From: Sedimentisphaerales bacterium
GTDB lineage: Bacteria; Planctomycetota; Phycisphaerae; Sedimentisphaerales; SM23-30
NCBI GenBank assembly: GCA_963666285.1
Contig: OY762711.1
Length of the DNA stretch: 64,000 nucleotides
Strand: one strand, 5' to 3'
A model generated the notes under the pieces. The model was not told the origin of the DNA. It saw only the letters and a program-made list of their open reading frames with translations, and made no database searches. Both the position numbers and the translations under genes were made by a program. Numbering within the stretch: position 1 is the stretch's first letter; each line of letters opens with the position of its first letter. Shown piece after piece: positions 23,965 through 63,853 of this stretch.

Positions 23965-24079
23965 AGAGTTTATCGCCAATTTTTTTGCTGAAAATATATG
24001 ACATTTAGCTTGCTTTATTAGATAAATGTTTATAAACTACTGATCTTCAAATTACTTGGCAGAATTTTCTGCCTCAGTT

Positions 24080-24153
24080 GCGCTCGTAGCTCAATTGGAT
24101 AGAGCATTGGTCTACGAAACCAAAGGTTACAGGTTCGACTCCTGTCGGGCGTA
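24080..24153 (+). tRNA. tRNA-Arg(ACG), CCA not encoded; likely prophage attL
   Basis: Cloverleaf: GCGCTCG/CGGGCGT acceptor, D-arm GCTC..GAGC, anticodon stem TTGGT-CTACGAA-ACCAA, T-loop GGTTCGACTCC. Confidence 0.95.
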
Positions 24154-24156
24154 TTA

Positions 24157-27250: not shown

Positions 27251-27342
27251 GTGGGCATAGAAATGGAAGAATTTTATATCAACTAGTCGGGATAATGTGT
27301 TCCGATATAATATTTCACTTCCTTAGAAAAGGAGATTCGCTT

Positions 27343-30045: not shown

Positions 30046-30048
30046 ATA

Positions 30049-30094: not shown

Positions 30095-30123
30095 TTTATT
30101 ATAAGTGCTTACAGGAGAGAAAT

Positions 30124-44308: not shown

Positions 44309-44722
44309 ATGCCAGGCCCACCGAAAACACCAACGGCTATTTTAGAGAAGCGTAATAGCTGGCGTGCTAAAGTGCGTCATAACGAGCCTGAAACTATCGG
44401 CCTGCCAGAGCCGCCGGAATGGTTAGACGGTGATGCTCTGGCCCATTGGGATAGATGTGTACAGAGACTTGTAAACATGAATATAGCGGGTGAGGCTGAC
44501 GCTGATAAGCTGGCTATATATTGTGTTACTTATATCAAGTTTCGGGATGTTTGCCGTAATAACGATGACCCTAAGCAGCTTGATAAGATGGTAAAGGCTG
44601 CACAGTTGATAGACAGGCTTGGTTCACAGTTCGGGTTCAGCCCATCGGCAAGGGCTAATATGGCTATTGAAATGCCTAAAAAGGACGTAGAGAAAAAGAA
44701 ATTCTTTAGAGATCGTGAGTAA
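44309..44722 (+). CDS. Terminase small subunit (P27 type)
   Basis: GPPKTPT, PPEWL...A..HW, FGFSPSARA. Confidence 0.9.
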   Translation: MPGPPKTPTAILEKRNSWRAKVRHNEPETIGLPEPPEWLDGDALAHWDRCVQRLVNMNIAGEADADKLAIYCVTYIKFRDVCRNNDDPKQLDKMVKAAQLIDRLGSQFGFSPSARANMAIEMPKKDVEKKKFFRDRE

Positions 44723-46332
44723 TGGACTACCCCGATTATTTACAACTTATACCGGATTATGACCCGGTTGCAACAGCCGAGGACTGTACTTTTGACGCTG
44801 AAATTGCGCAGCTTGCTATTGATTTCTTTGCTGAAGAGTTGTGTTTAATCGAGGGTGTACCGGGTTATCCTGCCTTTATCCTTGAGGCATGGCAAAAGGC
44901 TATTATCGCTAATCTGTTCGGCTGGCTGCGTCCTGATGGCACTAGGCGTTATACCGAAGCGTTTTTAATGATACCACGTAAGAACGGTAAAACCCCGCTT
45001 ATGGCAGGTGTGATTAACCATATAGCCTATAATGAGGATGAGCCAGGCGGTCAGATATATTCCAGTGCCGGGGAAAAGAACCAGGCCGCTTTGATATTCC
45101 GTCATGTAGCGGGCATGATTCAGCGTAATCCAGAGCTTGACAAGCGGGCCAAGATATACAAGACCTATAAAAGTGCCGAATTTTACGGCGGTGACTGTAT
45201 CTATAATGCTCTTTCTGCTGACGCTAATACCAAGCATGGTCAGAACGCCCATTTGATTATCAATGATGAGCTGCATGTACATAAAACAAGGGATTTGATT
45301 GATACCCTGGAAACGTCCACCGCTTCACGAAAGCAGCCTTTAGTAATTCATATTACTACTGCCGGATATGACAAGGAAACAATCTGTTATGAAAAATATG
45401 ATTATGCCTGTAAGGTTCGTGACGGTGTTATAAATGACAGTTCATTCCTGCCTGTTATCTATGAAATCAAGCAGGCTGATTATGACCGCTGGGATGATCC
45501 GGCTGTATGGGAATATTGCAACCCGAATTTAGGTATATCGGTTAATCGTGACTATCTGGAAAAGCAGTGTCAGAAAGCAAAGGCAATCCCGGCAAAAGAA
45601 AACACCTTCAGGCGTTTACACCTGAACCAGTGGACAGAGCAGGAATGCCGCTGGTTAAGTGTTAAGGCGTGGCAGGATTGCAATGTCGAACTTAGAAATG
45701 ATAACGGTATTATCTGGATCGGCGGGCTTGACCTATCAACTACAACAGATTTAACGGCCTTTACTGCTTTGGGTTTTGATTCGCTTGGTAATCTGCACTG
45801 GCATAGCTGGCCTTTTATCCCGAAAGATAATGCAACCAAGCGGGAACATCAAGACGGCGTTCCTTATCTGACCTGGGCGCGGCAAGGTAAAATCACTCTT
45901 ACAGATGGTAATGTAGTTGATTATAACGTGATTCAGGATCATATATTGAAAATGCACCAGATATATAACTTTGCTGAAATAGCTTATGACCCATATAACG
46001 CTACTCAGATGATATTAAACTTACAGGATAAAGGCATAGAATGTACGCCTTATGGTCAGGGTATAAAGAATATATCCCCGCCTTGTAAAGCTTTAGAGGC
46101 TTTGTTACTGGCTGGCAAAATCGCCCATGATGACCATCCTGTATTAAACTGGTGCGTTTCTAATGTAACGGTCAAACAGGATGAAAACGAAAATATCAAG
46201 CCTGTCAAGCCTAAGAACTTTAAGCGTATCGATATTATTGTTGCCGGTCTAATGGCTTTAGGCCGGTTAATTACAGAGAACCACGAAACCCAAGAATCAA
46301 TTTATGAGGAAAGAGACCCTTTTACATTCTAA
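44722..46332 (+). CDS. Terminase large subunit
   Basis: LEAWQ, PRKNGKT, DELH, ITTAG, GLDLS...DLTA, RID. Confidence 0.96.
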   Translation: MDYPDYLQLIPDYDPVATAEDCTFDAEIAQLAIDFFAEELCLIEGVPGYPAFILEAWQKAIIANLFGWLRPDGTRRYTEAFLMIPRKNGKTPLMAGVINHIAYNEDEPGGQIYSSAGEKNQAALIFRHVAGMIQRNPELDKRAKIYKTYKSAEFYGGDCIYNALSADANTKHGQNAHLIINDELHVHKTRDLIDTLETSTASRKQPLVIHITTAGYDKETICYEKYDYACKVRDGVINDSSFLPVIYEIKQADYDRWDDPAVWEYCNPNLGISVNRDYLEKQCQKAKAIPAKENTFRRLHLNQWTEQECRWLSVKAWQDCNVELRNDNGIIWIGGLDLSTTTDLTAFTALGFDSLGNLHWHSWPFIPKDNATKREHQDGVPYLTWARQGKITLTDGNVVDYNVIQDHILKMHQIYNFAEIAYDPYNATQMILNLQDKGIECTPYGQGIKNISPPCKALEALLLAGKIAHDDHPVLNWCVSNVTVKQDENENIKPVKPKNFKRIDIIVAGLMALGRLITENHETQESIYEERDPFTF

Positions 46333-49300
46333 TGTTACCGGAAATTATAAAAAAGAATAAAGACGAGGTATTAGATGAGCTTGTTAGTGTTATTATGGTT
46401 GCACGTAATGAAAAGCTGCTTGGTAAAACCTTAAATAATATGCAGCAGATGTCAGAAGGCCCGATAGAGTTCATTGTTTTACTTGATGGCCCAAATGATG
46501 AGCCGATTGATATAGCAGGTGCAAAGACTACTATTATCACCCTGAAAGATAATATAGGCAGAAGGCCCGCAACTGACAAGGCTGTTTCTTATGCTAAGGG
46601 TAAGTATGTATTTCATATAGATTCACACTGTAAAACCGATGTTTTCGGTTGGGATACTATATATAAGCAGCTATGTATTGATAAGCGTACTATGGTAATT
46701 CCAGACCTTGACGCTTTGTTAGTAGATAAATACAAAAGCAAAGGCCGTCGAGCTGGTCATAAATATATTGATGTTCGCTATAAAGATCAATGGAGCGGCG
46801 TTAAGACCCAGGGCCGTAATGAATATACCATTACTGGTAACGGTATGGGCTGGTTTCTGGAAAAGCAGTTTTATGATGCTTTTAATGGCTGCTGTAAAAA
46901 ACAGCCTGCCCGGTGGGGTAATTTCGGGGTTGAATGGGCCTCTAAAGTCTGGCTTTCTGATCCATACGGCGAGGGTATCGGCGGTAAGGTTATATTGTGC
47001 GGTGAAGTGCCGTTTGCTCACATGTGGAAAACAGGCGGCACAGGCTATAATACACCGGGGGTATCTAAAGGCAGGCAGGATTTATTCAAGTGGTTTAATG
47101 GTACAGGTGAGAATCAGTGCCGGGAATTTAGCTTTTTTGAAACTGAGCTTAAACACTTACTGCCTAAAAGGGTTAAGCATGAACATAAACGGCCTTTAAC
47201 TGTCTCATTACCGCCTGTCGCTGTTGTCAATTGTGACAAGCCCGCTGTAACGGCGATAATGAATACAAACGGTCTTTACCCACATTTAGACGCTGAGGCC
47301 ATAGAAAGCTTTTTACGGCAGGATTACGAAAATAAGCAGCTTATTATAGTTGCAACAAATCCAACATACAAGCTTGATAAGAGCTATGAAAATATTACAG
47401 TAATCAACCATGAACCGTTTAACCGTTTCCCGCAGCAGATAGCCTATGCCTTAAAGCAGGTTAAAACGCCGCTATGGTGCATTATGGATTCAGATGATGT
47501 ATTTAGTTCTGACCATATAAGCAGACTTGTAAAGCTATATCACAGGGCTAAAAGTGACGGTCTGGAAAGTCCCGGCTATGTGGTAAATGATACAGCCTGG
47601 GAACAGGTAAAAAATAACTGGCCTAAACGCCGGGAGCGTGGCTGGTGGTGTTGCCTGTATGAAAAGGTTGATAGTACCTTTATTGATGAGGTATTCAATG
47701 ACTTTCTAGCTAGTAAACAGAAAGATACCGGCAGCGACTTACATTTCATTAAAAATCAGGAATGGAACTGGATTAAATACCATAATGAAAAAGCGACCGT
47801 ATTGCACCGGCTCGGCGTAGGCTTCCATATCAGGAATGAACATAGTAAGCCAGGCTATTACAGAAATTCAATAGAAAAGGTCAAAAATAACATATTAGAG
47901 CCAATTATACCCGGTTGGCAGAAAGATTATAATGATATGATAGATAACTTTAACAATCCCGCTATTACCTGCATTATGAATACATTTCAAAGGGATAGAG
48001 CAACACTTGAAATAGCTGTAAATTCCTTTTTGAATAATGACTATGAAAATAAAAAGCTTCTTATTGTCAACAGCAATCCTAAACCGCTATGGATTAATGG
48101 CTATCACCCATGTATTGAAGTTGTAAATATTGCACCTTCTGACCATATAACCGAGTTTAAGCAAGCCTTAAATTATGTTAAAACATCGCATGTATCAATC
48201 CTTGACGATGATGACCGGGTAAGTATTAACCACGTTGGACAGATAGCAGAAGCTCTAAAAGCCAATAAGTTCAAGAATATTATCAATCTGAACTTTGAGG
48301 AAATGGATTGCAGTAATATCAAGCCTGGAAATATGTCCGGGCCGGTAAAGCAGCTTAAAAAACTTATGTGGTGGAATGGTGTCTATCGTACTGATGATAT
48401 GCGTAAAGTTGATATCGGTACAGACCTGCAAGGCTTTGATAAACGTATTATGGCAGCTTTAGCACCGCTTGAACTTGACTTGCCTGTTACTTATACATGG
48501 TGTCGCAACCATGTAATACATGAAAGCAAGTCCGGCAGAAACGCCCATAAAAACAAACTGGATCGGATTGCAAGAGCCAGAGCCGAGGCAAGCCCGCAGC
48601 CTATTACATTGGATTATACATTAAGTGAATACCCCGAAGTTACTGTAGTTTGCTGCACGTATGGCGCACATAAACACCGTACCGAAGAAATGTTAGAATC
48701 ATTTTTACGGCAGAGCTATCCAAAGGCAAGGCTTTTATTGCTTAATACCCATAAAGACCCTATTGTATTTCAGCAGCGGTATAGCAATATAGATGTTGTG
48801 GAAATGCCGGGCCATAACTTCGATACCCTTGCCAAAAAGCATGAACACGCTATCAGTCTGGTTAAAACACCTTATTGGATGATTTGTGATGATGACGATA
48901 TTATGCTGAAAAATCACATATTAACCTTAATGCAGGTCAATTACTGGAATAAGCGAGGGTATCATAAACCATCAAATAAACGGCCTTTGCAATCTTCACA
49001 TGAACGCAAGATTGTAATGTGTAATAATGATTATGCCTTTATCAAGAATGGTTCGGGCTGGACTTGTGCAGCATTTGAGACAGTGAGCCGGGATAAGCTG
49101 GCAGCCAAGTTTAGCAAACCTGTAAAGGGTTTGCCTGATAACTGTTACGATGGCCGGGTTCGTTTAAGTTCATGGCATGAGCAGCGTATCAGTTACCCAT
49201 TTTTACCGGGCTATGTCTGGCGTGGCGGTGGTAATGGATTTCACTTATCTATGACCGGAAAAAACAAGCAGTTAGCCGATTATGCCTATGAAAATGCCGA

Positions 49301-49907
49301 GCAGCGGGCAAACCTTATTAATAATGGTACTTGGCATCCGCATTTTGAAAAAGACTATAATAGCGAATTTGCGGCGTTTCTGTACAAGGCAGAAGAAAAG
49401 CGGCTGCATGGCAAAAATGCTTTTTATGTTCATTTGGATGATAAAGGTGCTATGCGTACAAAGGAATTTAACTTTGTTGTTGATTTCCTGAAGCAGCATA
49501 ATATCAGCAAAATAGTAGAGTTTGGCTGTGGTGCTTCTACTCTTTCCTTTGCTTCACTTGGCTTTGATATTACCAGCTATGAAACAAGTCAGTATTGGCA
49601 TGATAAAATTAGGCTGCTATTAGACCGGGATTGTATCAAGTTATATGATGGTGCAGCCATTAATTTGCCTGTACATGACTTTATTATCATTGATGGCCCA
49701 GACCCACCGGAAACAAGGGAAGAATCATTTATCGCTGCTGTTAACTCAAAGAGTAAATACATTGCCTGTCATGATATATTCAGAAAGCAGGAGCAGGATT
49801 TAATCAGTAAATACCTGATTGGCACAGGTTACAGGGAAATAGCCAGGCTTGAACCAAGTAAAAAACATAAACTGCATGGAGTAGCTATATATGGTCTTGG
49901 CAATTGA
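46332..49907 (+). CDS. Five-domain glycosylation enzyme: ppGalNAc-T-like GT-A + three GT2 domains + class I SAM methyltransferase
   Basis: IDSHC/WG...E...KVW..GG/AHMW; three P.(V/I)T...ESFL.QDY...VKT...DxDD-type units; VEFGCGAST...IIDGP...HD. Confidence 0.8.
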   Translation: MLPEIIKKNKDEVLDELVSVIMVARNEKLLGKTLNNMQQMSEGPIEFIVLLDGPNDEPIDIAGAKTTIITLKDNIGRRPATDKAVSYAKGKYVFHIDSHCKTDVFGWDTIYKQLCIDKRTMVIPDLDALLVDKYKSKGRRAGHKYIDVRYKDQWSGVKTQGRNEYTITGNGMGWFLEKQFYDAFNGCCKKQPARWGNFGVEWASKVWLSDPYGEGIGGKVILCGEVPFAHMWKTGGTGYNTPGVSKGRQDLFKWFNGTGENQCREFSFFETELKHLLPKRVKHEHKRPLTVSLPPVAVVNCDKPAVTAIMNTNGLYPHLDAEAIESFLRQDYENKQLIIVATNPTYKLDKSYENITVINHEPFNRFPQQIAYALKQVKTPLWCIMDSDDVFSSDHISRLVKLYHRAKSDGLESPGYVVNDTAWEQVKNNWPKRRERGWWCCLYEKVDSTFIDEVFNDFLASKQKDTGSDLHFIKNQEWNWIKYHNEKATVLHRLGVGFHIRNEHSKPGYYRNSIEKVKNNILEPIIPGWQKDYNDMIDNFNNPAITCIMNTFQRDRATLEIAVNSFLNNDYENKKLLIVNSNPKPLWINGYHPCIEVVNIAPSDHITEFKQALNYVKTSHVSILDDDDRVSINHVGQIAEALKANKFKNIINLNFEEMDCSNIKPGNMSGPVKQLKKLMWWNGVYRTDDMRKVDIGTDLQGFDKRIMAALAPLELDLPVTYTWCRNHVIHESKSGRNAHKNKLDRIARARAEASPQPITLDYTLSEYPEVTVVCCTYGAHKHRTEEMLESFLRQSYPKARLLLLNTHKDPIVFQQRYSNIDVVEMPGHNFDTLAKKHEHAISLVKTPYWMICDDDDIMLKNHILTLMQVNYWNKRGYHKPSNKRPLQSSHERKIVMCNNDYAFIKNGSGWTCAAFETVSRDKLAAKFSKPVKGLPDNCYDGRVRLSSWHEQRISYPFLPGYVWRGGGNGFHLSMTGKNKQLADYAYENAEQRANLINNGTWHPHFEKDYNSEFAAFLYKAEEKRLHGKNAFYVHLDDKGAMRTKEFNFVVDFLKQHNISKIVEFGCGASTLSFASLGFDITSYETSQYWHDKIRLLLDRDCIKLYDGAAINLPVHDFIIIDGPDPPETREESFIAAVNSKSKYIACHDIFRKQEQDLISKYLIGTGYREIARLEPSKKHKLHGVAIYGLGN

Positions 49908-49990
49908 TATTTGTCTATTGGGCGTGATATATAGGGTTTCAATATTGTTATTTTATCAAGCGATTAAATGTTTAAATACACGAGGTGTAT

Positions 49991-50680
49991 ATGGAAGAGA
50001 ATAATAAAGCTGTTGTGATCCGCTGGTATGGGCCTGGAACACCTAGAATTATAGACCCTAGCTGTATTACTAAAGGTTGGGACTATATATTTCTGACAGA
50101 TGATTTATCACATAATAGTTCTGATATATGGGAATCGCTTTTAATGCGTTTCCCAGGCTATAGCGGTGAACATGAATCGAAGATCATCAAGGCTATGTTT
50201 CCAATAATATATCCTAAATATGATTGGTGTGTAATTATCGATACTGAAAAGTATATCATTGATTCAGACCTGGACGCTCTTATCTACCAGTTACAGCCTG
50301 AAACAGAATTTGCAGCGTTAAGGCATAGAGTAACAAATTGTACCTATCACGAAATAGCACGCAACCGCAAGTATAAAAGGGATAGTAACGAGGCTTTAGA
50401 TGCCATAACTACAACAAACCTTACAACAAACCTACCTGTTAAATCTGGTTTATATGACACTTCTATAGTAATTTATAAATGTACAGAAAAGATGTGTGAA
50501 GCTCTTAAAACATGGGCTGAAATGATAAAGGTTTGTAAGCGTGACCAGTGCAGTATAGTAACTGCCATGCGTGAACATAAAGTTAATACCGAATATTTAC
50601 AGCTTGCTAATTACAAGCACTATAAGAAGCTAAGGCCAACAAGTAACGTATATGCTGAAAAGTCTATTGAACATATTTAA
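49991..50680 (+). CDS. DUF616 (TOD1/MUCI70-like) glycosyltransferase-related protein
   Basis: DYIFLTDD, RH...C.Y.E, GLY, W......RDQ.S. Confidence 0.65.
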   Translation: MEENNKAVVIRWYGPGTPRIIDPSCITKGWDYIFLTDDLSHNSSDIWESLLMRFPGYSGEHESKIIKAMFPIIYPKYDWCVIIDTEKYIIDSDLDALIYQLQPETEFAALRHRVTNCTYHEIARNRKYKRDSNEALDAITTTNLTTNLPVKSGLYDTSIVIYKCTEKMCEALKTWAEMIKVCKRDQCSIVTAMREHKVNTEYLQLANYKHYKKLRPTSNVYAEKSIEHI

Positions 50681-52710: not shown

Positions 52711-52756
52711 ATATACGCTATATGTAAACACCATTTCATTTAAAGGAGTAAAGAGA

Positions 52757-54058: not shown

Positions 54059-54102
54059 TACGGTTATTAACTATTAACTTCATAGTATGGAGATTTAAGA
54101 TA

Positions 54103-54576
54103 ATGAAATCTGTTATAGAAGAATCAAAGTATGTATCAGCACTAGCACCAATTACCCCGGCTAGTTCTGTACCTGCTTTTGTAAGCCTGGAGAACTATAG
54201 AAAGCTGGCTGTTGTTATTACTGTTGACAATGGAACAGATGTAACCGGCTCTGCTATTTCCTTGATCCAGGCTAAGGATGCAGAAGGTGCGGACGCTAAA
54301 GCTTTATCGTTTGATACTGTATTTGCAAATATTGATACCGATTCCGGTGATACATTAGTTAAGACAGAAGTTGAATCAGATACTTTTACTACTGATGCAA
54401 CTGCTGACGCTAACCTGTTGTATGTGATTGGAATTGATGTCGCCGACCTTGATGTTAACGAGGACTTTACCCATGTAAGGCTTGTTACCGCTGACGGTGC
54501 TAATATGGCGTTAAGTGCTGTATATCAGCTTTACGAAGGCCGCTATCACCAGGAAACGCCGCCTTCAGCAGTGTAA
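54103..54576 (+). CDS. Probable capsid-associated/decoration protein
   Basis: Directly after the MCP; acidic and beta-rich. Confidence 0.55.
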   Translation: MKSVIEESKYVSALAPITPASSVPAFVSLENYRKLAVVITVDNGTDVTGSAISLIQAKDAEGADAKALSFDTVFANIDTDSGDTLVKTEVESDTFTTDATADANLLYVIGIDVADLDVNEDFTHVRLVTADGANMALSAVYQLYEGRYHQETPPSAV

Positions 54577-54604
54577 TATACTAAAAGTTTTCTTCATTTT
54601 TTAT

Positions 54605-54631
54605 GTGTGACTGTCTAAATGGCAGTCACAC
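54605..54631. terminator. Hairpin after head genes
   Basis: GTGTGACTGTC-taaat-GGCAGTCACAC. Confidence 0.55.
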
Positions 54632-54735
54632 TAATATATTTAATGTTTACAATTGCAATTATTCGTTAGGGCGTATTGTAAATATTGGCAATATAGAATA
54701 TCAACAAGCGGCTAAATAAAATACACAAGGTGTAC

Positions 54736-55293
54736 ATGAATCATAAAGTAACAATAGAACCAAATACCGAGCCTGTAACACTGGAAGAGGCTAAAACACA
54801 TTTGCGGGTAACTTCAACCGCAGAGGATAGTTATATATCGTCTTTGATTACTATTGCCCGGCAATGGTGCGAAGGCTACGAAAATACCAAGTATATTACT
54901 CAGACAGTTACAGTTAAATACAATGCTATGAGAAGTGTTATCGAGTTGCCAGTTGGCCCGGCTCAGTCTGTAACTTCATTTAAGTATATTGATGATGACC
55001 AGATCGAACAGACAATTGATACAGCCGATTATGTGCTTGATACTTATAGTATGCCGCCTCTGGTATATGAGGCTTATGATGTTGAGTTCCCGACACCTTT
55101 GGATATTAGAAACGCTGTTGAAATCGTTTATGTTGCCGGGTTCGGTGATGCTGACGCTGTACCTGAAAGAATCAAGCAGGCTATAAAACTGATACTTACT
55201 CATTTGTATGAACACCGGGAACAGAACAGCGAGTTAAAACTTGAAGAAATGCCAATGAATGCAAAAGATTTATTGTTTGAGAGGGTATTTTAA
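54736..55293 (+). CDS. Head-tail connector (gp6-like)
   Basis: EPVTLEEAKTHLRV...ED.YI.SLI..AR; VP..IKQAI.L...HLYEHRE. Confidence 0.92.
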   Translation: MNHKVTIEPNTEPVTLEEAKTHLRVTSTAEDSYISSLITIARQWCEGYENTKYITQTVTVKYNAMRSVIELPVGPAQSVTSFKYIDDDQIEQTIDTADYVLDTYSMPPLVYEAYDVEFPTPLDIRNAVEIVYVAGFGDADAVPERIKQAIKLILTHLYEHREQNSELKLEEMPMNAKDLLFERVF

Positions 55294-55613
55294 TGCAGGT
55301 TGGACAGTTAAGGCATTTAGTAGAATTGCAGAATTATAGCACAACTGTAAACAGCGATTACGGTGAGCCGGTAAAAAACTGGACAACCTTTGGTGATGCT
55401 TGGGCTAGTATTAAGCCGGTATCAGGTCAGGTTAAAGAACAGGGTAATCGTGAAACTGCCAGCATAACACATAGTATTGTAATCAGGTATAACGCCGATT
55501 TGGATGAGAATTGCCGCATAGTATGGGAAGATAGAGTTTTTGAAATTGTAGCTATTCAGAACTATCAGCAGCGCAATATATTTATGATAGTAACAGCCAG
55601 GGAACAGAAATGA
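55293..55613 (+). CDS. Head closure protein
   Basis: GQLRH.V.LQ, WASIKP.SG, IRY. Confidence 0.9.
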   Translation: MQVGQLRHLVELQNYSTTVNSDYGEPVKNWTTFGDAWASIKPVSGQVKEQGNRETASITHSIVIRYNADLDENCRIVWEDRVFEIVAIQNYQQRNIFMIVTAREQK

Positions 55614-56056
55614 GCAGTTTAGAAGGTTTTGACAAGCTTGAAAAAAAGCTGCTTAAAATGGAAAAGACACAGGCAAAGAATATTGTCCGTAAAGCAAACA
55701 GAGAGGCTCAGAAAGTCACACTTGCACAGGCAAAGGCAAACGCTGTTTCTATGGTTGGCGGTGAAATGGGTAATAAGATAAGCGGTGCATTAAAGGTAAA
55801 GGCAGCTCGCAGGCAAAAGCCTGGTGAATACCGGACAAATGTTGAAATTGATTCAAAACGTGCAGAAGAGTTTGTACATAATACCGAGTCAGGTGAAAGG
55901 TATTTTATCCCGACCGCTATAGAATATGGACATATTTCAACTGATGGCGGTTTTGTACCACCAATACCGTATATGTGGAAAGCAGCAGAAACAACCAAAG
56001 ATTCACGTATAAAGGTAATGGAAAAGGAAATCAAAAAAGGTATTGAATCAGTATGA
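55610..56056 (+). CDS. HK97 gp10-like tail completion protein
   Basis: LEGFDKLEKKL; IEYG; PIPYM..A. Confidence 0.85.
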   Translation: MSSLEGFDKLEKKLLKMEKTQAKNIVRKANREAQKVTLAQAKANAVSMVGGEMGNKISGALKVKAARRQKPGEYRTNVEIDSKRAEEFVHNTESGERYFIPTAIEYGHISTDGGFVPPIPYMWKAAETTKDSRIKVMEKEIKKGIESV

Positions 56057-56487
56057 ACAGTGCAGAAAAAGCAATATATAAGCTTCTGGCAAATTGCAGC
56101 CAGGTAACGGCTTTAGTGGCTGAACGGATATCGCCGGAACTGGGCGAGTCTAAAGATATTATGCCATATATTACATATAACCTTATCTCTGAAGAAAGAG
56201 ACCATGTATTAGATGGTGTAGGTGGTATGAGTAAAGCACGTATGCAGCTAAATTGCTGGTCTGGCAGTTATACAAGCACTGTAGAGCTTAAAAATGCTGT
56301 AGTTGAAGAATATAACAAGTCAGATGAAACCGGCGGTATAGACGGCTTTAGTGGTTCTATTGATGACTTAATAATACAGTGTGTACATGTAAATGATATA
56401 AGTGATATTTTTGACTATACAGAGGGTACAGATAAATCGAAACGCTACGGCAAGCGAATAGATATACAGTTATGGTATAACCTGTAA
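56053..56487 (+). CDS. Tail terminator (DUF3168-like)
   Basis: V..RI.P; PYITY..IS; RMQLNCW. Confidence 0.8.
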   Translation: MNSAEKAIYKLLANCSQVTALVAERISPELGESKDIMPYITYNLISEERDHVLDGVGGMSKARMQLNCWSGSYTSTVELKNAVVEEYNKSDETGGIDGFSGSIDDLIIQCVHVNDISDIFDYTEGTDKSKRYGKRIDIQLWYNL

Positions 56488-56508
56488 CAGCTTTAAAGGA
56501 GTAAAGAG

Positions 56509-56910
56509 ATGAGCGGTGCAACACATGGTTACGGCACAACATTTAAGGGCAGCAGTGCCGGTATTATCGGCGAGTTAATTTCGATCACAATCGGCGGTTT
56601 GACCGTTGATATGATTGAAGTATCAAATATGGATAGTCCTGATGCGTATAAGGAATTTATCGCCGGGATGATTGATGCCGGTGAAATAACATTTTCAGGT
56701 AATTATATTAAGGCAACTTTTAGTTCTCTGAAAGATGCAGCAGACGGCAGAGAGGCAGAAGATTGGACGGTAACTTTCCCTGATGGTGCAAGCTGGAAAG
56801 GTTCCGGCTATGTTTCCGGTATTTCCGGTACATCACCTAATGATGACAAGATTACTGCCGACATAACAATTAAACTAACTGGCAAGCCTGAATTTTCGGC
56901 AGGTGCATAA
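56509..56910 (+). CDS. Major tail tube protein
   Basis: IEVSNMDS...KEFIAGMIDAGEITF; VTFPDG; IKLTGKP. Confidence 0.88.
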   Translation: MSGATHGYGTTFKGSSAGIIGELISITIGGLTVDMIEVSNMDSPDAYKEFIAGMIDAGEITFSGNYIKATFSSLKDAADGREAEDWTVTFPDGASWKGSGYVSGISGTSPNDDKITADITIKLTGKPEFSAGA

Positions 56911-56946
56911 TTTAATATAACATTCTAATACAAGGAAGTAGCAAAG

Positions 56947-57291
56947 ATGTTGACAAGAGAAGATATACTTAATTCAAAAGACCTTACTATACAGGTTGTT
57001 TCTGTCCCTGAATGGGGAGGCGATGTAATTGTAAAGACAATGTCAGGCGTTGAACGTGACGCATTTGAAGCGTCTATAGTACAAGGTGGTGTAACGGATA
57101 CCCGCAATATACGTGCTAAACTTGCCGCTATGAGCGTTGTAGATTCAAGTCGTAACCTGATGTTTACCCAGGCTGATATTGTAGAGCTTGGCAATAAGTC
57201 GGCGGCGGCCCTGGATAGAATATTTACGGTAGCCAGTAAGCTATCGGGTATTAGCCAGAGCGATATAGATGAACTTGAAAAAAACTCGTAA
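56947..57291 (+). CDS. Tail assembly chaperone (G-like)
   Basis: VPEWGG.V.V..MSG.ERDAFE; ends EKNS at a slippery site. Confidence 0.88.
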   Translation: MLTREDILNSKDLTIQVVSVPEWGGDVIVKTMSGVERDAFEASIVQGGVTDTRNIRAKLAAMSVVDSSRNLMFTQADIVELGNKSAAALDRIFTVASKLSGISQSDIDELEKNS

Positions 57292-57593
57292 ACCATCCAT
57301 TCAGGCAATTTGTATTTACCCTTGCCGGTCATTTAGGAATGACAGTCAATGAACTGTTAAACCGGATGACCAGCAAGGAACTATCCGAATGGATGGCATA
57401 TTATAAAGTTAATCCTTTTGGCGAATGGCGGGCAGATTTTAGAAATGCCTTATTGTGCCAGGTTAACGCTAATCTGCATAGTAAAAAGAATTATAACCTT
57501 AAAGAATTTATGCCAACATTTAGCCGGTTCAAAAAAATGATGAGCTGGCAGATGATGAAAGAACTGTTAAAGGCAACATGTAAACATACATAG
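57285..57593 (+). CDS. Tail chaperone -1 frameshift extension (GT-like)
   Basis: A AAA AAC at 57279-57285; the -1 frame is open: LVNHPFRQFVFTLAGHLGMTVNELL.RMTS.EL.EW. Confidence 0.85.
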   Translation, partial: LVNHPFRQFVFTLAGHLGMTVNELLNRMTSKELSEWMAYYKVNPFGEWRADFRNALLCQVNANLHSKKNYNLKEFMPTFSRFKKMMSWQMMKELLKATCKHT

Positions 57594-57608
57594 TATGTAA
57601 AGGTCATT

Positions 57609-59012
57609 ATGGCAACTGTAGCAACATTATTAGTAAACCTTACCGCAAAGACTGTATTGTTTGAGCGTAATATCAAGCGAAGTCGTAAGAAGCTTAACAG
57701 GTTTGAAAAAGCCGCAAAAGCAAGCGTGACGGCTGTTTCCAGAGTCTTTAAGGCTATGGGTATAGCAGCGGCGGCGGGCTTTGGTGCTGTTTCTGTGGCT
57801 GTTGGTAAGTCTATGGGTAAAATTGACAGTATTGCCAAATTATCCGACCGGCTTGGAATTGCGACAGAGGATTTAATAAAACTGCAACATGCCGCCGAAC
57901 TGTCCGGGGTTAAAACTGAATCGCTGAATACTTCCATACAAAGGATGGTTCGGCGTGTTGGTGAAGCTGCACAGGGTACAGGAGAGGCCAAAAATGCCCT
58001 GGTAGCTTTGGGGGTAGATGCCAAGAAACTCAACCGGGAAGGCCCGGCAAAAGCACTTTTAACGCTGGCTGATGCCTTTGCTAAAGTTCCGAGCCAGGCA
58101 GATCGTGTTAGATATGCCTTTAAACTATTCGATACTGAAGGTGTGGCAATGCTGCAAATGCTGCAAGGCGGTTCCGGTTCAGTACGTGAAATGATGGCTG
58201 AGATAGATAAGTTTGGTGGTGCAATAAACCGGGTTGACGCTGCACAGGTTGAAGCTGCTAACGATGCTATTACTAACCTGAAGAAATCAACCGCCTTGCT
58301 TACTGACAAGCTTGCTGTGGGCCTTGCGCCGTATATACAGTATGTAAGCGACTTGTTTATTGATATGCGTTCCAGCGGTGTTATAAGCACAAATAGCATA
58401 AACAAGGGTTTGGAAAAGACCTTTAGAATAGCAAATATTATCGCAAAAGCTTTTAATGTTGTTCATGGAATACTGAAAATAGTGTCGGCTTTTATAGGTG
58501 GTGTTATAACCTTATTCAGTGGGCTTACAAGTGTTGTTCTTGATGTAGTGTCGGCAGTGTCAAAACTGGTTGGTAAGCTGCTTGACTTGCAGTCAGTATC
58601 AGATTTTGCCGAATCGACAGGCAATAAAGCAAGGGAGCTTGAAGCTTTTGCAACTGAATTAAGTAAACAAAATAACAATCTTGCCAAAGAAGGGTTAAAC
58701 CAGATATTTTCCTTTGATGATGGTAAAAAGACAATAGATAAAATATTCAATGAGGTTGAAAAAAGGCGTAAAGCTACAGAACTGAAGATTAAGACCAGAG
58801 ATAAAATAGGTTCTGTTAGTGAAAGTATGCCGGTGTCTGCTGCTATGAAAGGCGGCTCAATAATTAGTATTGATGCCGGTGCTGTTTCTGTTGGCTCGCT
58901 TGGCTCTTCATTGAGTAATAACAAAATAGCCCAGAACTTAAAGGCAAACGAAAAAACAGCACAGAACACAACGGCAATAGCAAATACTATCCAGAATGTT
59001 GTATTGAGGTAA
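57609..59012 (+). CDS. Tape measure protein (short, 467 aa)
   Basis: ATLLVNLTA; AKLSDRLGI; Ala-rich helical; position after chaperones. Confidence 0.88.
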   Translation: MATVATLLVNLTAKTVLFERNIKRSRKKLNRFEKAAKASVTAVSRVFKAMGIAAAAGFGAVSVAVGKSMGKIDSIAKLSDRLGIATEDLIKLQHAAELSGVKTESLNTSIQRMVRRVGEAAQGTGEAKNALVALGVDAKKLNREGPAKALLTLADAFAKVPSQADRVRYAFKLFDTEGVAMLQMLQGGSGSVREMMAEIDKFGGAINRVDAAQVEAANDAITNLKKSTALLTDKLAVGLAPYIQYVSDLFIDMRSSGVISTNSINKGLEKTFRIANIIAKAFNVVHGILKIVSAFIGGVITLFSGLTSVVLDVVSAVSKLVGKLLDLQSVSDFAESTGNKARELEAFATELSKQNNNLAKEGLNQIFSFDDGKKTIDKIFNEVEKRRKATELKIKTRDKIGSVSESMPVSAAMKGGSIISIDAGAVSVGSLGSSLSNNKIAQNLKANEKTAQNTTAIANTIQNVVLR

Positions 59013-59015
59013 TAG

Positions 59016-59819
59016 ATGTCAGTAGTATATACAGATTTAATCGATGGTGACGCTGCAACCTATACCCGACGTGGTTGGGAAAATATCAGCCGTTCAGCTT
59101 TGGTAAGTGGTATTAGCCCAAGTATTAGCGGTCATGCAAAGATAATGCAGGCTTTTAATATATTAGAGCTTGATATTGGTATGCAGCATCCAAGTTTTGA
59201 CAATAACTATATCCGTTCTATTTCGCCGACTTCGATAGCTTCTGATACTGTAACATTCCTAATACAGTATGAGCAAATGACCGGCTTTGCAGATGAAATA
59301 AGCGGCGGTGGTGGACTGATACAGATTGAAACTAACCTGGATCGGAACGGCAAAGCAATTGTTTTAGAATACACGTATCCTGATGACTATGCTATTGATA
59401 TAAAATATGCCGGGCAGACAGATAAAGTAAGCAAGTTAATAGCTGTTGATAAGTCAGTTGTGCCATTGTCAATTAAACGCAGACAGATATTTTCTGCTAT
59501 TCAGAAGCCTCAGCAGCTTGCGGAAAGCTATGTCGGTAAAGTCAATAGTGATAACTGGTCTGTTGCCTTTGATGGTGCAACTCGCAGATGGAAATGTACA
59601 GGTATAGACTTTAATTATGTACTTCCAATATTTAATTCAGGCAAACAGTATGTTTATGATATGACATATCAGTTTCAATATAATTCTAACGCCTGGAATG
59701 AGTCGCTTATTTATGTTGACCCCAATACCGGCAATCCGCCCGAAGATGCCGAGGCAGATGAATTTGAAGTATTAGACCAGATAGCTTTTAACAGCCTTAT
59801 TGACAGTATAATTACATGA
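59016..59819 (+). CDS. Putative tail-tip protein
   Basis: Immediately after TMP; ATGA overlap with next gene. Confidence 0.55.
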   Translation: MSVVYTDLIDGDAATYTRRGWENISRSALVSGISPSISGHAKIMQAFNILELDIGMQHPSFDNNYIRSISPTSIASDTVTFLIQYEQMTGFADEISGGGGLIQIETNLDRNGKAIVLEYTYPDDYAIDIKYAGQTDKVSKLIAVDKSVVPLSIKRRQIFSAIQKPQQLAESYVGKVNSDNWSVAFDGATRRWKCTGIDFNYVLPIFNSGKQYVYDMTYQFQYNSNAWNESLIYVDPNTGNPPEDAEADEFEVLDQIAFNSLIDSIIT

Positions 59820-61252
59820 GCAGAAATTCATATAAAATTGAAAAATTTACACAAGGCCCGCATTCGACCGTTAAGCGTCTGAACCAGGTTATAGACACAG
59901 TAAATACGCTATCCAGCCGTAAAACAAGTGTTATCAATGGTAAAGTGCTTAAAGATGATATGGTCTTTGGTATTATAAATAGTACCGAGGTAGATGATGA
60001 GGGTTATTTCAGGGGTACATTATTTAATCGTGAAAATGAAGAAGTACCGGAAACAAATCCTTATTATGATATACTGATAAAGTGTCAGATAGCCGAATAC
60101 CCAAATGTATTAAAGAACAACTACTTTACTGCTATCAGGAATAAAATACAAGATGAATGGTATTGTACTGGTATCTATGTAGGTGATGCCAGTTCGTTAA
60201 GTTCATTCCTTAGCTCTGAAACTGAAAGCAGCTCGAAACATTCGAGCGATAGTTCAGAGTCAACAAGTGGCAGTTCTGACGGCACAACAGCAAGTTCATC
60301 ATATAGTTTTTCCAGTGAATCAAAATCTATAAGCAGCAGTTCATCATTATCAAGCTTTAGTTCTTATGATAGTTCTGGCAGTTCCGGTACATCTGCAAAA
60401 AGTTCTCATAGTTCAGGGCATAGTTCAAGTTCAGTGGATAGTTCTGGTAGTTCAGATGGCAGTTCGGGCAGTTCTGACCATACTTCCGGTAGCTCATACG
60501 AAAGTACAGGCAGTTCAGATTTAACATCGGGTAGTTCAGACGAAAGTTCCGGCAGTTCGGATAACACTTCTGGTAGTTCAGGTAGTAGCTCAGGTAGTTC
60601 TGACTATACGTCGGGTAGTTCAAGTGTAAGTTCTGGTAGTTCTGACCATACATCAAATAGTTCTGATAGAAGTAGTGGCAGTTCAGATCATACATCAGAA
60701 TCACGTAAAAGCTCAAGCAGTCGTGATTTCAGTACGCCACCGCCTTTGTCTAGTTATAGTTCCTGGGATAGTTCCGGCAGTTCTGAAGATGAATCTTCCT
60801 CTAGTTCCGGTGATTCATCAGATAGTTCAGCTTCAAGTTCTGGCAGTTCTGCTAGTTCAAGTGGCAGTTCCAGTAAAAAGTCAAGCTCTAGTTCTGGGGG
60901 GAGTTCCAGTTCAAGTTCTGACAATTCCTCAAGTAGTTCAGAGGGTAGTTCCAGCGAATCATCTTCAAGCGATTTGCCGATAGAAGTTGGCGGCGATTGC
61001 TGTTTATGTAGTATGTTAAGTGGCAAAGATGTTACTGTTGGTTGGGGAGGTGGTACTGGCGGTTATTCCGGTGGTAGTTGTGCTTCTAATATAGCTATAG
61101 ATTGTGGTGGTATTAGTGGAGCTGGTACATATACAGTTTTATGTCCAGGCAATAAAAAGGTAACTGTGTCCGTTGGCGGCGGTGAATATTGTGCAAGTTG
61201 TTGTAACGCATATTTTGCCGATGCTGTAATTGATAGTATAGAGTATTTATAA
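59816..61252 (+). CDS. Serine-rich repeat (mucin-like) tail-module protein with Cys/Gly-rich C-terminal domain
   Basis: About 260-aa Ser-dominated tract; 12 heptads SGSSDxT/S; C-terminus CCLC...C..C..C..CASCC. Confidence 0.8.
   Translation: MSRNSYKIEKFTQGPHSTVKRLNQVIDTVNTLSSRKTSVINGKVLKDDMVFGIINSTEVDDEGYFRGTLFNRENEEVPETNPYYDILIKCQIAEYPNVLKNNYFTAIRNKIQDEWYCTGIYVGDASSLSSFLSSETESSSKHSSDSSESTSGSSDGTTASSSYSFSSESKSISSSSSLSSFSSYDSSGSSGTSAKSSHSSGHSSSSVDSSGSSDGSSGSSDHTSGSSYESTGSSDLTSGSSDESSGSSDNTSGSSGSSSGSSDYTSGSSSVSSGSSDHTSNSSDRSSGSSDHTSESRKSSSSRDFSTPPPLSSYSSWDSSGSSEDESSSSSGDSSDSSASSSGSSASSSGSSSKKSSSSSGGSSSSSSDNSSSSSEGSSSESSSSDLPIEVGGDCCLCSMLSGKDVTVGWGGGTGGYSGGSCASNIAIDCGGISGAGTYTVLCPGNKKVTVSVGGGEYCASCCNAYFADAVIDSIEYL
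60443..60694 (+). repeat. 12 x 21-nt degenerate tandem coding repeat (SGSSDxT/S)
   Basis: SGSSDGS SGSSDHT SGSSYES TGSSDLT SGSSDES SGSSDNT SGSSGSS SGSSDYT SGSSSVS SGSSDHT SNSSDRS SGSSDHT. Confidence 0.9.
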
Positions 61253-61253
61253 T

Positions 61254-62372
61254 ATGGTTGTAGTATTAGAAAAAAATAATCTTGTACATGAATATCCAGA
61301 ATGTTTCCATAGGGTAGGTAATATTTGCCTGTATGGTTCCAGGCGGACAGGTAGAGCATGTAGGGTAAATGAGGTATTTTGTAAATTCTTATGTGCTGCT
61401 AAAGGCGGCCCATGTAATAAAGAATGTAACGGCAATGAGCCAAAAGCCGTATTTAAAAAGATGTTTGGTAAATCGATGCCTTTTCTTAATTCATTATTTA
61501 TAGAAAAGATACTCAAGAAATATTTTGGTACATTTGAAATCAAAGTGCCGGGAATGTGGGAACTAATAAAAAAAAGCTTCCAGCCGGTATTAGATGAGTT
61601 TGACGACTGTTTAGGCGGTGTGCTTATAACAGGCTCTTTAATGGTTGTTGGTGCACCATTGAAAGACATAGATATTTTACTTGAGGTTAAGGATGAAAAG
61701 CTATTTGGTCAGAAGTATGACGAGATAATATCAAAGGTTCCCAAAACAGTTAATAATATTACGGTGGATTGCTTTTTCTGTTTTGATAAGCATAAGAACT
61801 TTTTTATGTTGATGAACCCTGATAAGCGAGAGGTTTATACAAGTGAGTTTTTTGAACCATCAATTGTTAACGGTAAAGAGTTTAATATTGTATCTTCTGA
61901 TAATCCGTACTATTCAGATGGCTTTGTTGCTATGGTAGAATTTTTGTATGAATATAATGCTGATACTAAATTCATTATCGATGAAATTGAACGTATAAAA
62001 AAGGTATATGGTGAGGAAGTCGTTAATCATATATTGGCTTTACAAGCTAAGTATAGAGACAGTATCGAAGCTTTACAGAAATGCTATACCTGCCAGTATT
62101 ATAGAAATAAATGCAATAATTGTTCCCCATATTGTTTATGGTTAACCAGGCAAAAAAATCTAATTGAATGGCTGAAAAATGGGAATGCCTGTCCATTAGA
62201 TAATAATGCTGCATTGCAATCTGATGATAGCAGCTTTTGCCGTAAAAAGAGTATGTGTACTAATTGCAAGTATTATATTGAAAGTAGTGATATGTGCCTG
62301 TATTTAACCAGGGCAACAAATCTAAACAACTGGATCAAGCAGGATAACGCTTGCCCGCTTAATAAATTCTAA
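61254..62372 (+). CDS. Cys-rich protein with central Pol-beta-type nucleotidyltransferase motif
   Basis: LITGSL....PLKDIDILL...VDCF; two C-terminal CxxCxYY...CL.L.R..NL..W.K..NACPL repeats. Confidence 0.6.
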   Translation: MVVVLEKNNLVHEYPECFHRVGNICLYGSRRTGRACRVNEVFCKFLCAAKGGPCNKECNGNEPKAVFKKMFGKSMPFLNSLFIEKILKKYFGTFEIKVPGMWELIKKSFQPVLDEFDDCLGGVLITGSLMVVGAPLKDIDILLEVKDEKLFGQKYDEIISKVPKTVNNITVDCFFCFDKHKNFFMLMNPDKREVYTSEFFEPSIVNGKEFNIVSSDNPYYSDGFVAMVEFLYEYNADTKFIIDEIERIKKVYGEEVVNHILALQAKYRDSIEALQKCYTCQYYRNKCNNCSPYCLWLTRQKNLIEWLKNGNACPLDNNAALQSDDSSFCRKKSMCTNCKYYIESSDMCLYLTRATNLNNWIKQDNACPLNKF

Positions 62373-62382
62373 AAGGTGCTGT

Positions 62383-62592
62383 ATGTGTGATAAGTGTGTA
62401 CAAGAAAAAAGGGTAACAAATATTGAACATGACCTATACGGCAACGGTCGGCCAGGTCTGAAACAAGATGTTACCCAAATTAAAAATGATTTAATGTGGT
62501 TGAAGCGGATAGGCGGCTGGATCGCCGGTATGCTTGCGGTTATTATAGCCGGGCTGATACTTGCAGGGGTGCAGTATTTGACTAAGCTTTAG
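62383..62592 (+). CDS. Small single-TM protein (XhlA/holin-like)
   Basis: LYGNGRPGL, coiled segment, C-terminal TM; last + strand gene of the late operon. Confidence 0.5.
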   Translation: MCDKCVQEKRVTNIEHDLYGNGRPGLKQDVTQIKNDLMWLKRIGGWIAGMLAVIIAGLILAGVQYLTKL

Positions 62593-63853
62593 GAGAGGTG
62601 TTTTCAGGCTTTTGGAATTGAAAATTTATATCACCATTGATTTCGTTTGGCAAGTTATCTACTTTTATACTATATCTACATTTGAAGGGTTTGATGGATT
62701 CATAATTGTTGAAAATTAAAAAAATTTCATTTATACACCCTATAGTGTTATGTTTAATTGATGAAAAATGGTCACAAACATCATAACTGTTTGTTTTTTT
62801 AAGTGAAAATGAAGAAAATGTTGACAATTTGGGTTCGGTCATTAGTGCGAGATTGGCTATGCCTAACTGCGTTGACTGAAACAAGTTTTCAGTTGCACTT
62901 AAAGGCTTAGAAGGTAAAGTTGGTTCTATTGGAGCTTGGGGACAGTCATCTTCTTCATATAACTCGAATCCATCTGGAAAATGTAACTCGATATCAACGT
63001 TACATGCAGGAGTGTTACCTTTATTGGCAATTCCTATTATAAATCTAAATTTTGGTTTATTTTGATACTTCTGAAGCTCTACTAAATACTTTTCATACTC
63101 TGTAATGTAGTTATCTAGTTTCTTGTGGTATGCTGAAATTCTTTCTTTTGAAATTGGTAAAACCATATCTAAAAATGATTCTGAAGGCTGAGTGGACATG
63201 TAATGTTCTTTGGTATATGTTTTTAGGTTAAGTATCATTTCTTCAATTTCGTTATCAGACAAAACTTCATAGTCTATAGGAAATATAGGATTAGCTGTAA
63301 CGTTGTTTTCGGCATAAATAATACCAATTTCAAGTTTGGGGTGAGCGTTTTTCAATTGATCAATCTCACGTTTTAAGCGGCGATTTTCTTCTTCAATTGG
63401 GTGGATGATTGAAGGTAGCATCAGTGATTCATCAATTTCCTCCGCTATAATGCCGAGGTGTTTGGCAGTAAGTAGCATGTTTGTATCGTTAGTTATAAGA
63501 ACTTTATCCTCTATTGCCTTTGGATATTCAATAATATTTGCAAGTAAGATATCATCATTAGAGGTTTTATCTAAACCATGCTCTTCTGGGTTTGGGGTAT
63601 GTATAACAAATTCAAAACCTAATTTGTCAGATACTGTTTTTGTTTCACTCCAACTTGCAATAGAATTGCATATAGAACGCGCTCTTTTTTGAATTGCGTT
63701 TGATTTATGCGAATCTTTATGCTTGTTAAGTTCACCTAGCGTTACTCGTGGAACTACAAGTACGCAATCCTTATCAAACCGATTAAGGTTAAGTTCAACA
63801 ATTGGTTTGTAATGGAGATATACCATTGTGTCTAAAAAAATGTATTTAGGCAT
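62582..63853 (-). CDS. PIN-domain ribonuclease-like protein (moron)
   Basis: FLDT, VP..TLGEL..HK, NDD.L, LITND..M...AK; coiled coil and C-terminal domain. Confidence 0.8.
   Translation of the reverse strand: MPKYIFLDTMVYLHYKPIVELNLNRFDKDCVLVVPRVTLGELNKHKDSHKSNAIQKRARSICNSIASWSETKTVSDKLGFEFVIHTPNPEEHGLDKTSNDDILLANIIEYPKAIEDKVLITNDTNMLLTAKHLGIIAEEIDESLMLPSIIHPIEEENRRLKREIDQLKNAHPKLEIGIIYAENNVTANPIFPIDYEVLSDNEIEEMILNLKTYTKEHYMSTQPSESFLDMVLPISKERISAYHKKLDNYITEYEKYLVELQKYQNKPKFRFIIGIANKGNTPACNVDIELHFPDGFELYEEDDCPQAPIEPTLPSKPLSATENLFQSTQLGIANLALMTEPKLSTFSSFSLKKTNSYDVCDHFSSIKHNTIGCINEIFLIFNNYESIKPFKCRYSIKVDNLPNEINGDINFQFQKPENTSPKA

Follow-up and report, generated by a model that had tools for sequence, protein, structure and literature searches.

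A prophage-encoded GT27-like glycosyltransferase and a serine-rich tail-region protein in a Sedimentisphaerales bacterium: probable mucin-type O-glycosylation of a tail-spike stalk

Phage-encoded glycosylation of virions is already established in the mycobacteriophages Che8, Corndog and Myrna, as cited in the accessible parts of PMC12619734, PMC13445384, PMC11256854 and PMC12363180; there, phage glycosyltransferases (GTs) act by O-linkage on the phage's own structural proteins, and the targets reported in these parts are capsid and tail-tube subunits. Long Ser-rich repeats with neighbouring GTs, proposed to form an extended glycosylated stalk, are described for the serine-rich repeat proteins (SRRPs) PsrP, Fap1 and SraP of Gram-positive bacteria (PMC10269691, accessible part). 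The enzyme families GT27 and GT60, in which DxH replaces DxD, both O-glycosylate Ser/Thr of polypeptides (PMC7185993, in the sections available), and GT60 enzymes lack a lectin domain (PMC8724618, likewise in part). Here we describe prophage P1, located in a 64,000-nucleotide stretch of the genome of a Sedimentisphaerales bacterium (hereafter the window; G000:C1:2080001-2144000), which encodes a Ser-rich tail-region protein (the Ser protein) and a large GT with a GT27-like domain. We consider phage-encoded, mucin-type O-glycosylation of a tail-spike stalk to be the probable function of this pair. As in the mycobacteriophages, phage GTs would act by O-linkage on a structural protein, a proposal made for P1 from its genes; the proposed target differs, being a dense 162-site stalk on a tail-tip trimer. 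New at this locus are the Ser version on an OB-fold spike, the test of selection on acceptor residues and the anchor-independent controls. The features that carry the argument are listed below.

59816-61252, plus strand: Ser protein, 478 amino acids (aa), second gene after the tape measure protein (TMP) gene
59816..60187, plus strand: N-domain of the Ser protein, helix 16-34 and OB fold, proposed tail-tip anchor (predicted local distance difference test, pLDDT, 82.6; trimer model)
60188..60973, plus strand: Ser-rich stalk, 262 aa with 162 Ser/Thr, proposed O-glycosylation acceptor (composition; comparison with prophage P2)
60440..60691, plus strand: 12 heptad repeats (S/T)SGSSxx (Tandem Repeats Finder and repeat reading)
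60974..61252, plus strand: Cys/Gly-rich tip, 9 Cys in 92 aa, differing between phages (composition)
46332..49907, plus strand: large multidomain GT, 1191 aa (PF00535 in three stretches, PF13641, weak FKRP_N)
46377..47060, plus strand: GT27-like domain 1 of the large GT, residues 16-243, proposed initiating enzyme (profile A6 against PDB; motif positions)

The Ser protein falls into three parts by composition. Residues 1-124 are ordinary, residues 125-386 contain 57% Ser, 10% Gly, 8% Asp and no Cys, and residues 387-478 contain 9 Cys and 21% Gly. Tandem arrays with periods of 21, 42 and 84 extend across 60428-60687, the period-21 array with 62% matches, and the 12 heptads correspond to 60443-60694 in the register of an earlier note on this DNA. 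Codons differ in 159 of the 313 heptad codon pairs that encode the same residue, and the ratio of nonsynonymous to synonymous differences (pN/pS) over the five core columns is 0.22. The codon class is fixed at heptad positions 4 (AGY in 12/12) and 5 (TCN in 12/12), indicating that the unit was born by DNA duplication and afterwards kept at the protein level; a simple DNA-repeat artefact is rejected. The N terminus is not hydrophobic, the best Kyte-Doolittle 19-mer in the first 30 windows reaching 0.12 (hydropathy only). The earlier note had described just such a protein, with a globular N-terminal part, a Ser stalk of 12 heptads maintained despite diverged synonymous codons, a Cys/Gly tip and no apparent signal peptide, and this description is confirmed.

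Neither the Ser protein, nor its domains, nor the product of the preceding gene (59016-59819) matches a Pfam or PHROG family, and the whole Ser protein has one match in the ESM Atlas, at 0.75, which is taken as a lead. The Ser tract is neither a chance occurrence nor an assembly artefact: only 1 of 60 host windows of 20 kb holds any gene near the tract threshold given below, and contigs of public run X1, possibly the source sample itself, agree with long stretches of the Ser gene at 0 differences. A separate host open reading frame (ORF), G000:C1:4764949-4765734, carries a long TSSTN-type repeat with 0.8 Ser+Thr in 100 aa and may be either a real gene or a shadow frame.

With its long Ser-rich repeat (262 aa, 57% Ser), the Ser protein resembles the SRRPs, and the analogy with these adhesins, drawn in the earlier note, is one of function only. 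Membership of the group is rejected. SRRPs carry a signal peptide and a C-terminal cell-wall anchor, both absent here (hydropathy; no Pfam match in the tip), and their repeats are of the SAS type, in contrast to the heptads of P1, where an N-terminal OB trimer anchor is modelled. No secY2/secA2 or gtfA/gtfB genes occur among the flanking genes in 44722-63853 (all scanned but the 137-aa gene before the terminase; the early genes in part). SRRP glycosylation is initiated by GtfA/B, whose fold differs from GT-A, and the P1 enzyme is of the GT-A type. Domain 1 of the latter does show a weak match to the GT2 structure 5HEA, which we take to belong to the Fap1 pathway.

Comparison with a sister prophage points to selection on the acceptor residues themselves. 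Two prophages related to P1 are present in the same genome, G000: P2 (~90% identical) and P3 (30-57% in structural genes). Between P1 and P2, 0 of the 162 stalk Ser/Thr are changed, against 28 of the 100 other stalk residues, a count that low-complexity matching may slightly flatter in the nearly gap-free alignment (478 vs 481 aa); in three other collinear proteins, 25 of 188 Ser/Thr are changed. The invariance of Ser/Thr among changing neighbours indicates selection on hydroxyl residues, beyond length or disorder. Synonymous divergence of the stalk is substantial (pS 0.53) and its pN/pS of 0.11 is as low as in the folded domains (N-domain 0.13, tip 0.23). Ser+Thr per 30 residues does not exceed 0.33 in any other virion protein of the window, with values of 0.33 for the capsid and 0.30 for the tail tube.

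The large GT consists of GT27-like domain 1, three further GT2-type domains and a C-terminal methyltransferase-like region, the last recognised by motif reading, with no Pfam match. Its pN/pS against P2 is 0.11-0.16 in all five regions. The genome contains just three full-length matches to it, which are the prophage copies (92% identity in P2, 50% in P3), and each of these prophages has an OB-Ser gene. A profile built from four sequences of domain 1 (A6; P1, P2, P3 and L072) was compared with PDB: the best 14 matches are all polypeptide N-acetylgalactosaminyltransferases (ppGalNAc-Ts, GT27), over profile positions ~5-248 with a best E of 6e-15, and the best non-GT27 match (9e-9) covers positions 2-158 only. 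The L072 domain alone matches ppGalNAc-Ts at E 6e-8. Domain 1 contains the motifs DSH (97-99) and WGxxGxEW (195-202) and a distal His230; DSH and His230 align with DAH and HVF of GalNAc-T1. It thus resembles GT27/GT60 enzymes over the whole catalytic domain, in DxH, the WG..E segment and the distal His, and in having a dense Ser/Thr partner. It differs from GT27 in its fusion to GT2 domains and a methyltransferase-like region, in lacking a type II membrane anchor and in being cytoplasmic and phage-encoded. The Pfam model of GT60, the N-acetylglucosamine family, gave no match in scans of the window GT or its relatives, although DxH and the absence of a lectin domain are common to both. Judging from these motifs and profiles, domain 1 probably works like a GT27/GT60 initiator; assignment to GT27 in the strict sense failed.

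This enzyme family gave no tblastn match in 50,697 GenBank phage records (queries: window large GT and L072 GT). No described phage GT27-like enzyme with a Ser/Thr tail stalk was found in the literature covered, most subscription papers lying outside its scope, and the accessible parts of PMC13738210 and PMC13345888 contain nothing on phages.

Enzyme and tract also occur together in other elements. GT loci from scans with profiles A6 and A7 form 19 clusters at 70% identity, leaving out L121 and L149 as partial matches (A7 scores 31 and 25) and L117-L119, L126, L128 and L150 as repeats of L113, L115 or L116. With a tract defined as Ser+Thr of 0.6 in 30 aa or 0.4 in 100 aa, 8 of the 19 clusters have a Ser/Thr-tract gene upstream of the enzyme, at a distance of at most 1.6 kb; the fraction is 8/12 where at least 1 kb is in view and 7/9 where at least 1.9 kb is. 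Tract-positive gene sets are long-tailed (L113-L116, L144), with a P2-gpI-type baseplate (L141, L148) or with an SU10 adaptor (L123), and the enzyme loci cover sipho-, myo- and podovirus-type gene sets. Among control tail modules without the enzyme, 1 of 32 has a tract (94 chosen proteins of the control elements were scanned with Pfam). One set of controls comprised 29 elements of the 59016 family, 21 of them with at least 3 kb downstream, in which a tract occurs in G855 only and the enzyme is adjacent there too; the other comprised 42 viral loci anchored on the tail tube, 12 of them with at least 8 kb downstream, with a tract in L152 only. Against the controls, Fisher's test gives 1e-5 (7/9) and 8e-4 (8/19); non-independence of the relatives and a threshold chosen post hoc make both values look stronger than they are.

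The closest outside relative, L144, encodes an OB domain with a ~280-aa Ser stalk and a Cys tip; the very next gene codes for a GT that is 48% identical to residues 16-536 of the window enzyme and groups with P1-P3 at 100/99 support. The distant layout in P1-P3 is therefore an alternative arrangement of a pair that adjoins elsewhere. In L113, the same OB domain bears a different Ser repeat upstream of a GT block. All four members of the Ser-stalk clade retain the GT27-like domain. In the enzyme tree, the Ser-linked enzymes do not form one clade, L113 standing apart (the two host outgroups are long branches), and co-evolution of enzyme and tract is therefore not claimed. The earlier note's call of a GT27-like enzyme and its pairing with the Ser protein are both supported by these data, and the co-occurrence that it asked to be checked is found. 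It had also named retention of the tract without GTs as evidence against the pairing; no clean case was found, the nearest being L152, which lacks a GT27-like match and carries other GTs.

Some other loci have features of their own. In L141:8222-20640, L137, L148 and L123, GT27-like genes are accompanied by short proteins with an uninterrupted run of ~50-110 Thr and a Cys tip, and L141 runs on into sugar-synthesis genes (GDP-mannose dehydratase, transketolase-like pairs). A Thr/Pro tract is located at the contig end of L082, whose genome G405 (90% complete, 260 contigs) shows only partial GT2-type matches.

The N-domain (124 aa) is modelled as a helix and an OB fold, with fold matches at Z 5.7-7.1 to OB folds, among which gp5/VgrG-type spikes (Z ~6 to 7aef_q, 6rbk_C, 8kea_D, 9vzk_q, 4uhv_A and 6orj_A) stand among generic ones. 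The three-copy model scores 0.87 against 0.00 for the best control, with at least 90% of contacts shared between runs, partner pLDDT of at least 76 and an interface formed by strands 89-97 and 116-122; 20 of 30 solved homo-pairs reach the pass mark, as does 1 of 23 single chains, and these counts carry over only roughly to three copies. Trimerisation of this domain, whose prediction the earlier note had suggested, is thus supported by the model. The Ser protein would share with gp5/VgrG spikes the OB fold and the homotrimer, and it shares the position after the tail-end gene. In those spikes a triple beta-helix needle follows the OB domain, where the P1 protein has a disordered Ser stalk instead, and the P1 tail is, by contrast, non-contractile. 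From the models, the N-domain is read as a central-spike-like anchor. The earlier note had placed the gene two after the TMP gene, correctly, and in the tail-fibre slot, an assignment that gives way to that of a probable central spike rather than a side fibre.

A profile of the N-domain found 14 matches among 1.84 billion representatives, from which P0012 and P0016 were removed because their matches reflect repeats or low complexity. The 12 kept relatives comprise eight stalkless proteins of ~200 aa, one 146-aa fragment, one protein with a short Ser run and two with long Ser repeats of differing units. This distribution indicates that the N-domain is a tail-slot module and that Ser stalks were gained more than once. 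Slot-mates of the Ser gene likewise recur in tail modules without any stalk. Among 401 genomes of the phylum, the profile matches G000 alone, and a search of a 5.8-billion set for longer forms of the domain, which is a weak test, found none.

Other features of P1 and its surroundings are as follows.

24079..24155, plus strand: tRNA-Arg(ACG), whose 3' 44 bp form attL of P1 (ARAGORN, 44-bp direct repeat)
24267-25478: integrase of P1 (PF00589)
44722..46332, plus strand: terminase large subunit, left neighbour of the GT block (PF03354/PF20441)
49985..50680, plus strand: small GT-like protein (PF04765 TOD1/MUCI70, E 0.005, weak, below cut-off)
57609..59012, plus strand: short tape measure protein, 467 aa (PHROG TMP families, best E 3e-62)
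59016..59819, plus strand: conserved tail-end protein in the distal-tail or hub slot (family A3/A5, after the TMP in many related elements)
61254..62372, plus strand: Cys-rich partner with 21 Cys and a GS..DxD nucleotidyltransferase-like motif (motif reading)
62383..62592, plus strand: 69-aa protein with a hydrophobic C terminus, possibly holin-like from its position (no family match in Pfam or PHROG)

P1 spans 40.6 kb and is inserted in tRNA-Arg, with the 44-bp direct repeat at both ends (ARAGORN and repeat search): attL starts at window position 24112, and attR lies at C1:2144712, ~0.7 kb past the window end. P3 stands in tandem with it at the same tRNA-Arg (C1:2104112, 2144712, 2184213), and P2 at tRNA-Leu(TAG). 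Insertions in P3 affect the terminase and a tail-region gene, one of them being a DDE transposase; its GT and Ser genes are whole. The late operon of P1 begins with the terminase, the large GT, the small GT-like gene, portal, S49 protease, capsid and connectors, and continues with the tail tube, chaperones, tape measure, tail-end gene, Ser gene, Cys-rich gene and the 69-aa membrane protein. The Ser gene and the tail-end gene overlap at the stop codon of the latter. The 69-aa gene is followed only by a PIN gene and a further ORF, both on the reverse strand, and thus by no other fibre gene. The small GT-like protein is kept at 93% identity in P2 and 36% in P3; it has no PDB match.

Several observations concern genes beside this pair. 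In P3, the head-completion protein (G000:C1:2169370-2171253; L004:5371-7254) is extended by 520 aa that include two Ser/Gly/Thr (SG[TS]) tracts and make it another candidate acceptor; the tail-completion protein is likewise extended. The P2 helicase (G000:C1:991624-994347) has 907 aa, compared with 554 aa in P1, owing to an in-frame insertion near its N terminus, possibly an intein. P1 carries morons at window positions 27238-30768, coding for a 935-aa beta-helix protein and a PEP-CTERM-like protein. Outside the prophage, an 81-bp tandem repeat of 3.9 copies (window 18460-18771) lies within a 1672-aa host ORF.

The model of the tail-end protein 59016-59819 has a pLDDT of 45, and its fold search is uninformative as to a distal tail protein or hub; searches found nothing similar in IMG/VR, also with profile A3, or among GenBank phages. 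In one host family (L013-L034; family f9, 21/45 genomes), a 59016-like gene is often present together with the two or three tail genes behind it. In L064 such a gene is surrounded by housekeeping genes and no capsid gene is in view, which suggests that a tail remnant has been domesticated there. L058, L060 and L061 are compact elements with portal, capsid and 59016-like gene and no tape measure in between; those of L058 and L060 adjoin argJ, and the type is possibly gene-transfer-agent-like.

The Cys/Gly tip is kept in P2. P3 retains the stalk, and its tip is replaced in frame by a helical segment with one Cys. Relatives bear other Cys-rich tips, none of which the window tip matches; it has no match in the ESM Atlas or to a tip profile made from seven relatives. 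A profile of the helical module matched neither the P3 tip nor the 61254-62372 product, and these resemblances were dropped. A conserved Cys-rich receptor-binding tip is thus rejected; the receptor-binding role first proposed for the tip, which varies and is lost in P3, is possible, though unsupported. The Cys-rich partner 61254-62372 has no Pfam or PDB match and scores weakly against PHROG, at E 0.002 over the whole protein, with no stretch that passes. One of its Cys modules resembles the N terminus of the L144 GT fusion (phmmer E 0.0017 among 14 selected proteins), which is suggestive. In many relatives, the tip gene is followed by small Cys-rich genes or by N-terminal Cys modules of GTs, with or without GTs.

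Taken together, the following scheme is proposed for the temperate long-tailed phage P1. The Ser gene would encode its tail-tip protein, the OB N-domain trimerising at the tail end so that three Ser stalks project, each capped by a small exchangeable tip. During the late lytic phase, domain 1 of the co-transcribed large GT would place a first sugar, probably an N-acetylhexosamine, on stalk serines in the cytoplasm, and the further GT2 domains and the methyltransferase-like end would probably extend and cap the chain. The outcome would be a mucin-type bottle-brush, stiffer and protected from proteases. As rules of thumb, a glycosylated residue spans ~0.25 nm and a tape-measure residue 0.15 nm; by these, the stalk would measure ~65 nm, equal to the tail itself. 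A more far-reaching version is tentative and, in our view, rather doubtful as a whole. According to it, one polypeptide with a GT27-like initiator, three extenders and a methyl cap forms a self-contained mucin assembly line, which decorates up to ~490 sites per trimer on a central spike in a phage with no conventional fibre. The glycan brush, not the tip, would reach through or bind the host envelope, and tract and enzyme would travel together as a module between phages of sipho-, myo- and podovirus type, with repeated origins of Ser or Thr variants.

Several observations weigh against mucin-type glycosylation of the stalk by this enzyme. Alone, window domain 1 matches ppGalNAc-Ts at E 0.02, ranked below a streptococcal GT2. 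The Gal/GalNAc-T motif of GT27, WGGEN-xE, reads WGNFG-VE, with the first Glu replaced and the second kept, and there is no ricin-type lectin domain (Pfam finds GT2-type domains after domain 1); owing to these two features, donor and acceptor may differ from those of GT27. The N-domain's Z scores to spikes (<8) tie with those to ribosomal and other OB folds, so that spikes are not singled out, and its trimer pass may stem from likeness to solved OB trimers. As for the linkage, the tract threshold was set after the data had been seen, the loci were chosen on the enzyme with relatives not independent, too little upstream sequence is available in nine GT clusters, and six of the positive clusters have a Thr tract and two a Ser tract, tracts beside the enzyme elsewhere being mostly poly-Thr. 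L152, a complete 30-kb phage, has a Ser-Pro stalk and no A7 match. In L122 and the L129-L135 group, the enzyme lies among structural genes with no tract in the 4-5 kb upstream; in the complete phage L177, GT2 genes stand in the head module and 20 kb of sequence holds no tract; and the GT genes of P1, P2 and P3 are situated between terminase and portal, in P1 9-13 kb from the Ser gene, which fits capsid modification equally.

The last three observations, together with the published capsid and tail-tube cases (in the parts of those sources cited above), favour the alternative that survives best, which we nevertheless judge unlikely: the GT block decorates the capsid, tail tube or another virion protein, as in Che8, and the stalk is an unmodified, flexible, acidic spacer for the receptor scan of the tip. 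A plain spacer should tolerate Ser changes, yet none of the 162 hydroxyl residues is changed; neither capsid nor tube has a Ser/Thr-rich stretch; and in L144 the enzyme lies directly 3' of the stalk gene. Decoration of these proteins and glycosylation of the stalk are not mutually exclusive.

Somewhat less likely again is modification of the stalk serines by other chemistry or another enzyme, domain 1 not being the initiator: a phospho-glycan made by a Stealth protein or nucleotidyltransferase, possibly 61254-62372; phosphorylation that would serve cation binding; or a GT of the host. Directly behind the Ser gene, 61254-62372 does carry a nucleotidyltransferase-like motif, the serines stand in an acidic Ser-Ser-Asp/Glu context, and domain 1 retains the GT27 motif only in part. 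At L152:13824-18687, a tail protein combines Ser-Ser-Pro repeats and a Cys knot with a Stealth CR2-like domain fused to it (E 4e-7, below cut-off), with no GT27-like profile match in the genome, and its gene is followed by GT34, methyltransferase, sulfotransferase and GT2 genes, possibly for phosphoglycosylation of the tail stalk. This gene set supports stalk modification, not this enzyme as its sole route. A reverse-strand GT2 of L152, considered as GT27-like from DSH and GGEE read by eye, had no GT27 match in PDB and was not counted. In contrast, the nucleotidyltransferase-like gene is absent from P3, and the GT27-like domain is present in every member of the Ser-stalk clade.

A non-virion role of the Ser protein, as a glycoprotein of lysogenic conversion, or one released on lysis, with the host surface or biofilm as its site of action, is improbable: it has no tail family match, its OB fold is generic and P1 does carry surface-type morons, but the gene overlaps the tail-end gene in the late operon, its product has no signal or membrane segment, and same-slot genes recur in stalkless tail modules. 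Hypermodification of phage DNA by the GTs, with no relation to the Ser protein, is the least probable explanation. Phage GTs are known to glycosylate DNA (PMC12619734, accessible part), and P1 carries DNA methylase and 3'-phosphoadenosine 5'-phosphosulfate (PAPS)-reductase-like genes (Pfam, PHROG), yet the nearest solved relatives act on polypeptides and the GT genes stand in a structural operon, with neighbouring Ser/Thr tracts across phage types.

Glycosylation of the tail-spike stalk, if true, would extend virion glycosylation from a few capsid and tail-tube sites to dense mucin-type O-glycosylation of the adsorption device. P1 may be inducible, its att sites being intact and its GT and Ser genes having no visible lesion. 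The large GT would represent a soluble, lectin-free relative of GT27/GT60 from the bacterial cytoplasm, available together with its natural acceptor; it would thus bear on the origin of mucin-type glycosylation, with a possible use in glycoengineering of E. coli.

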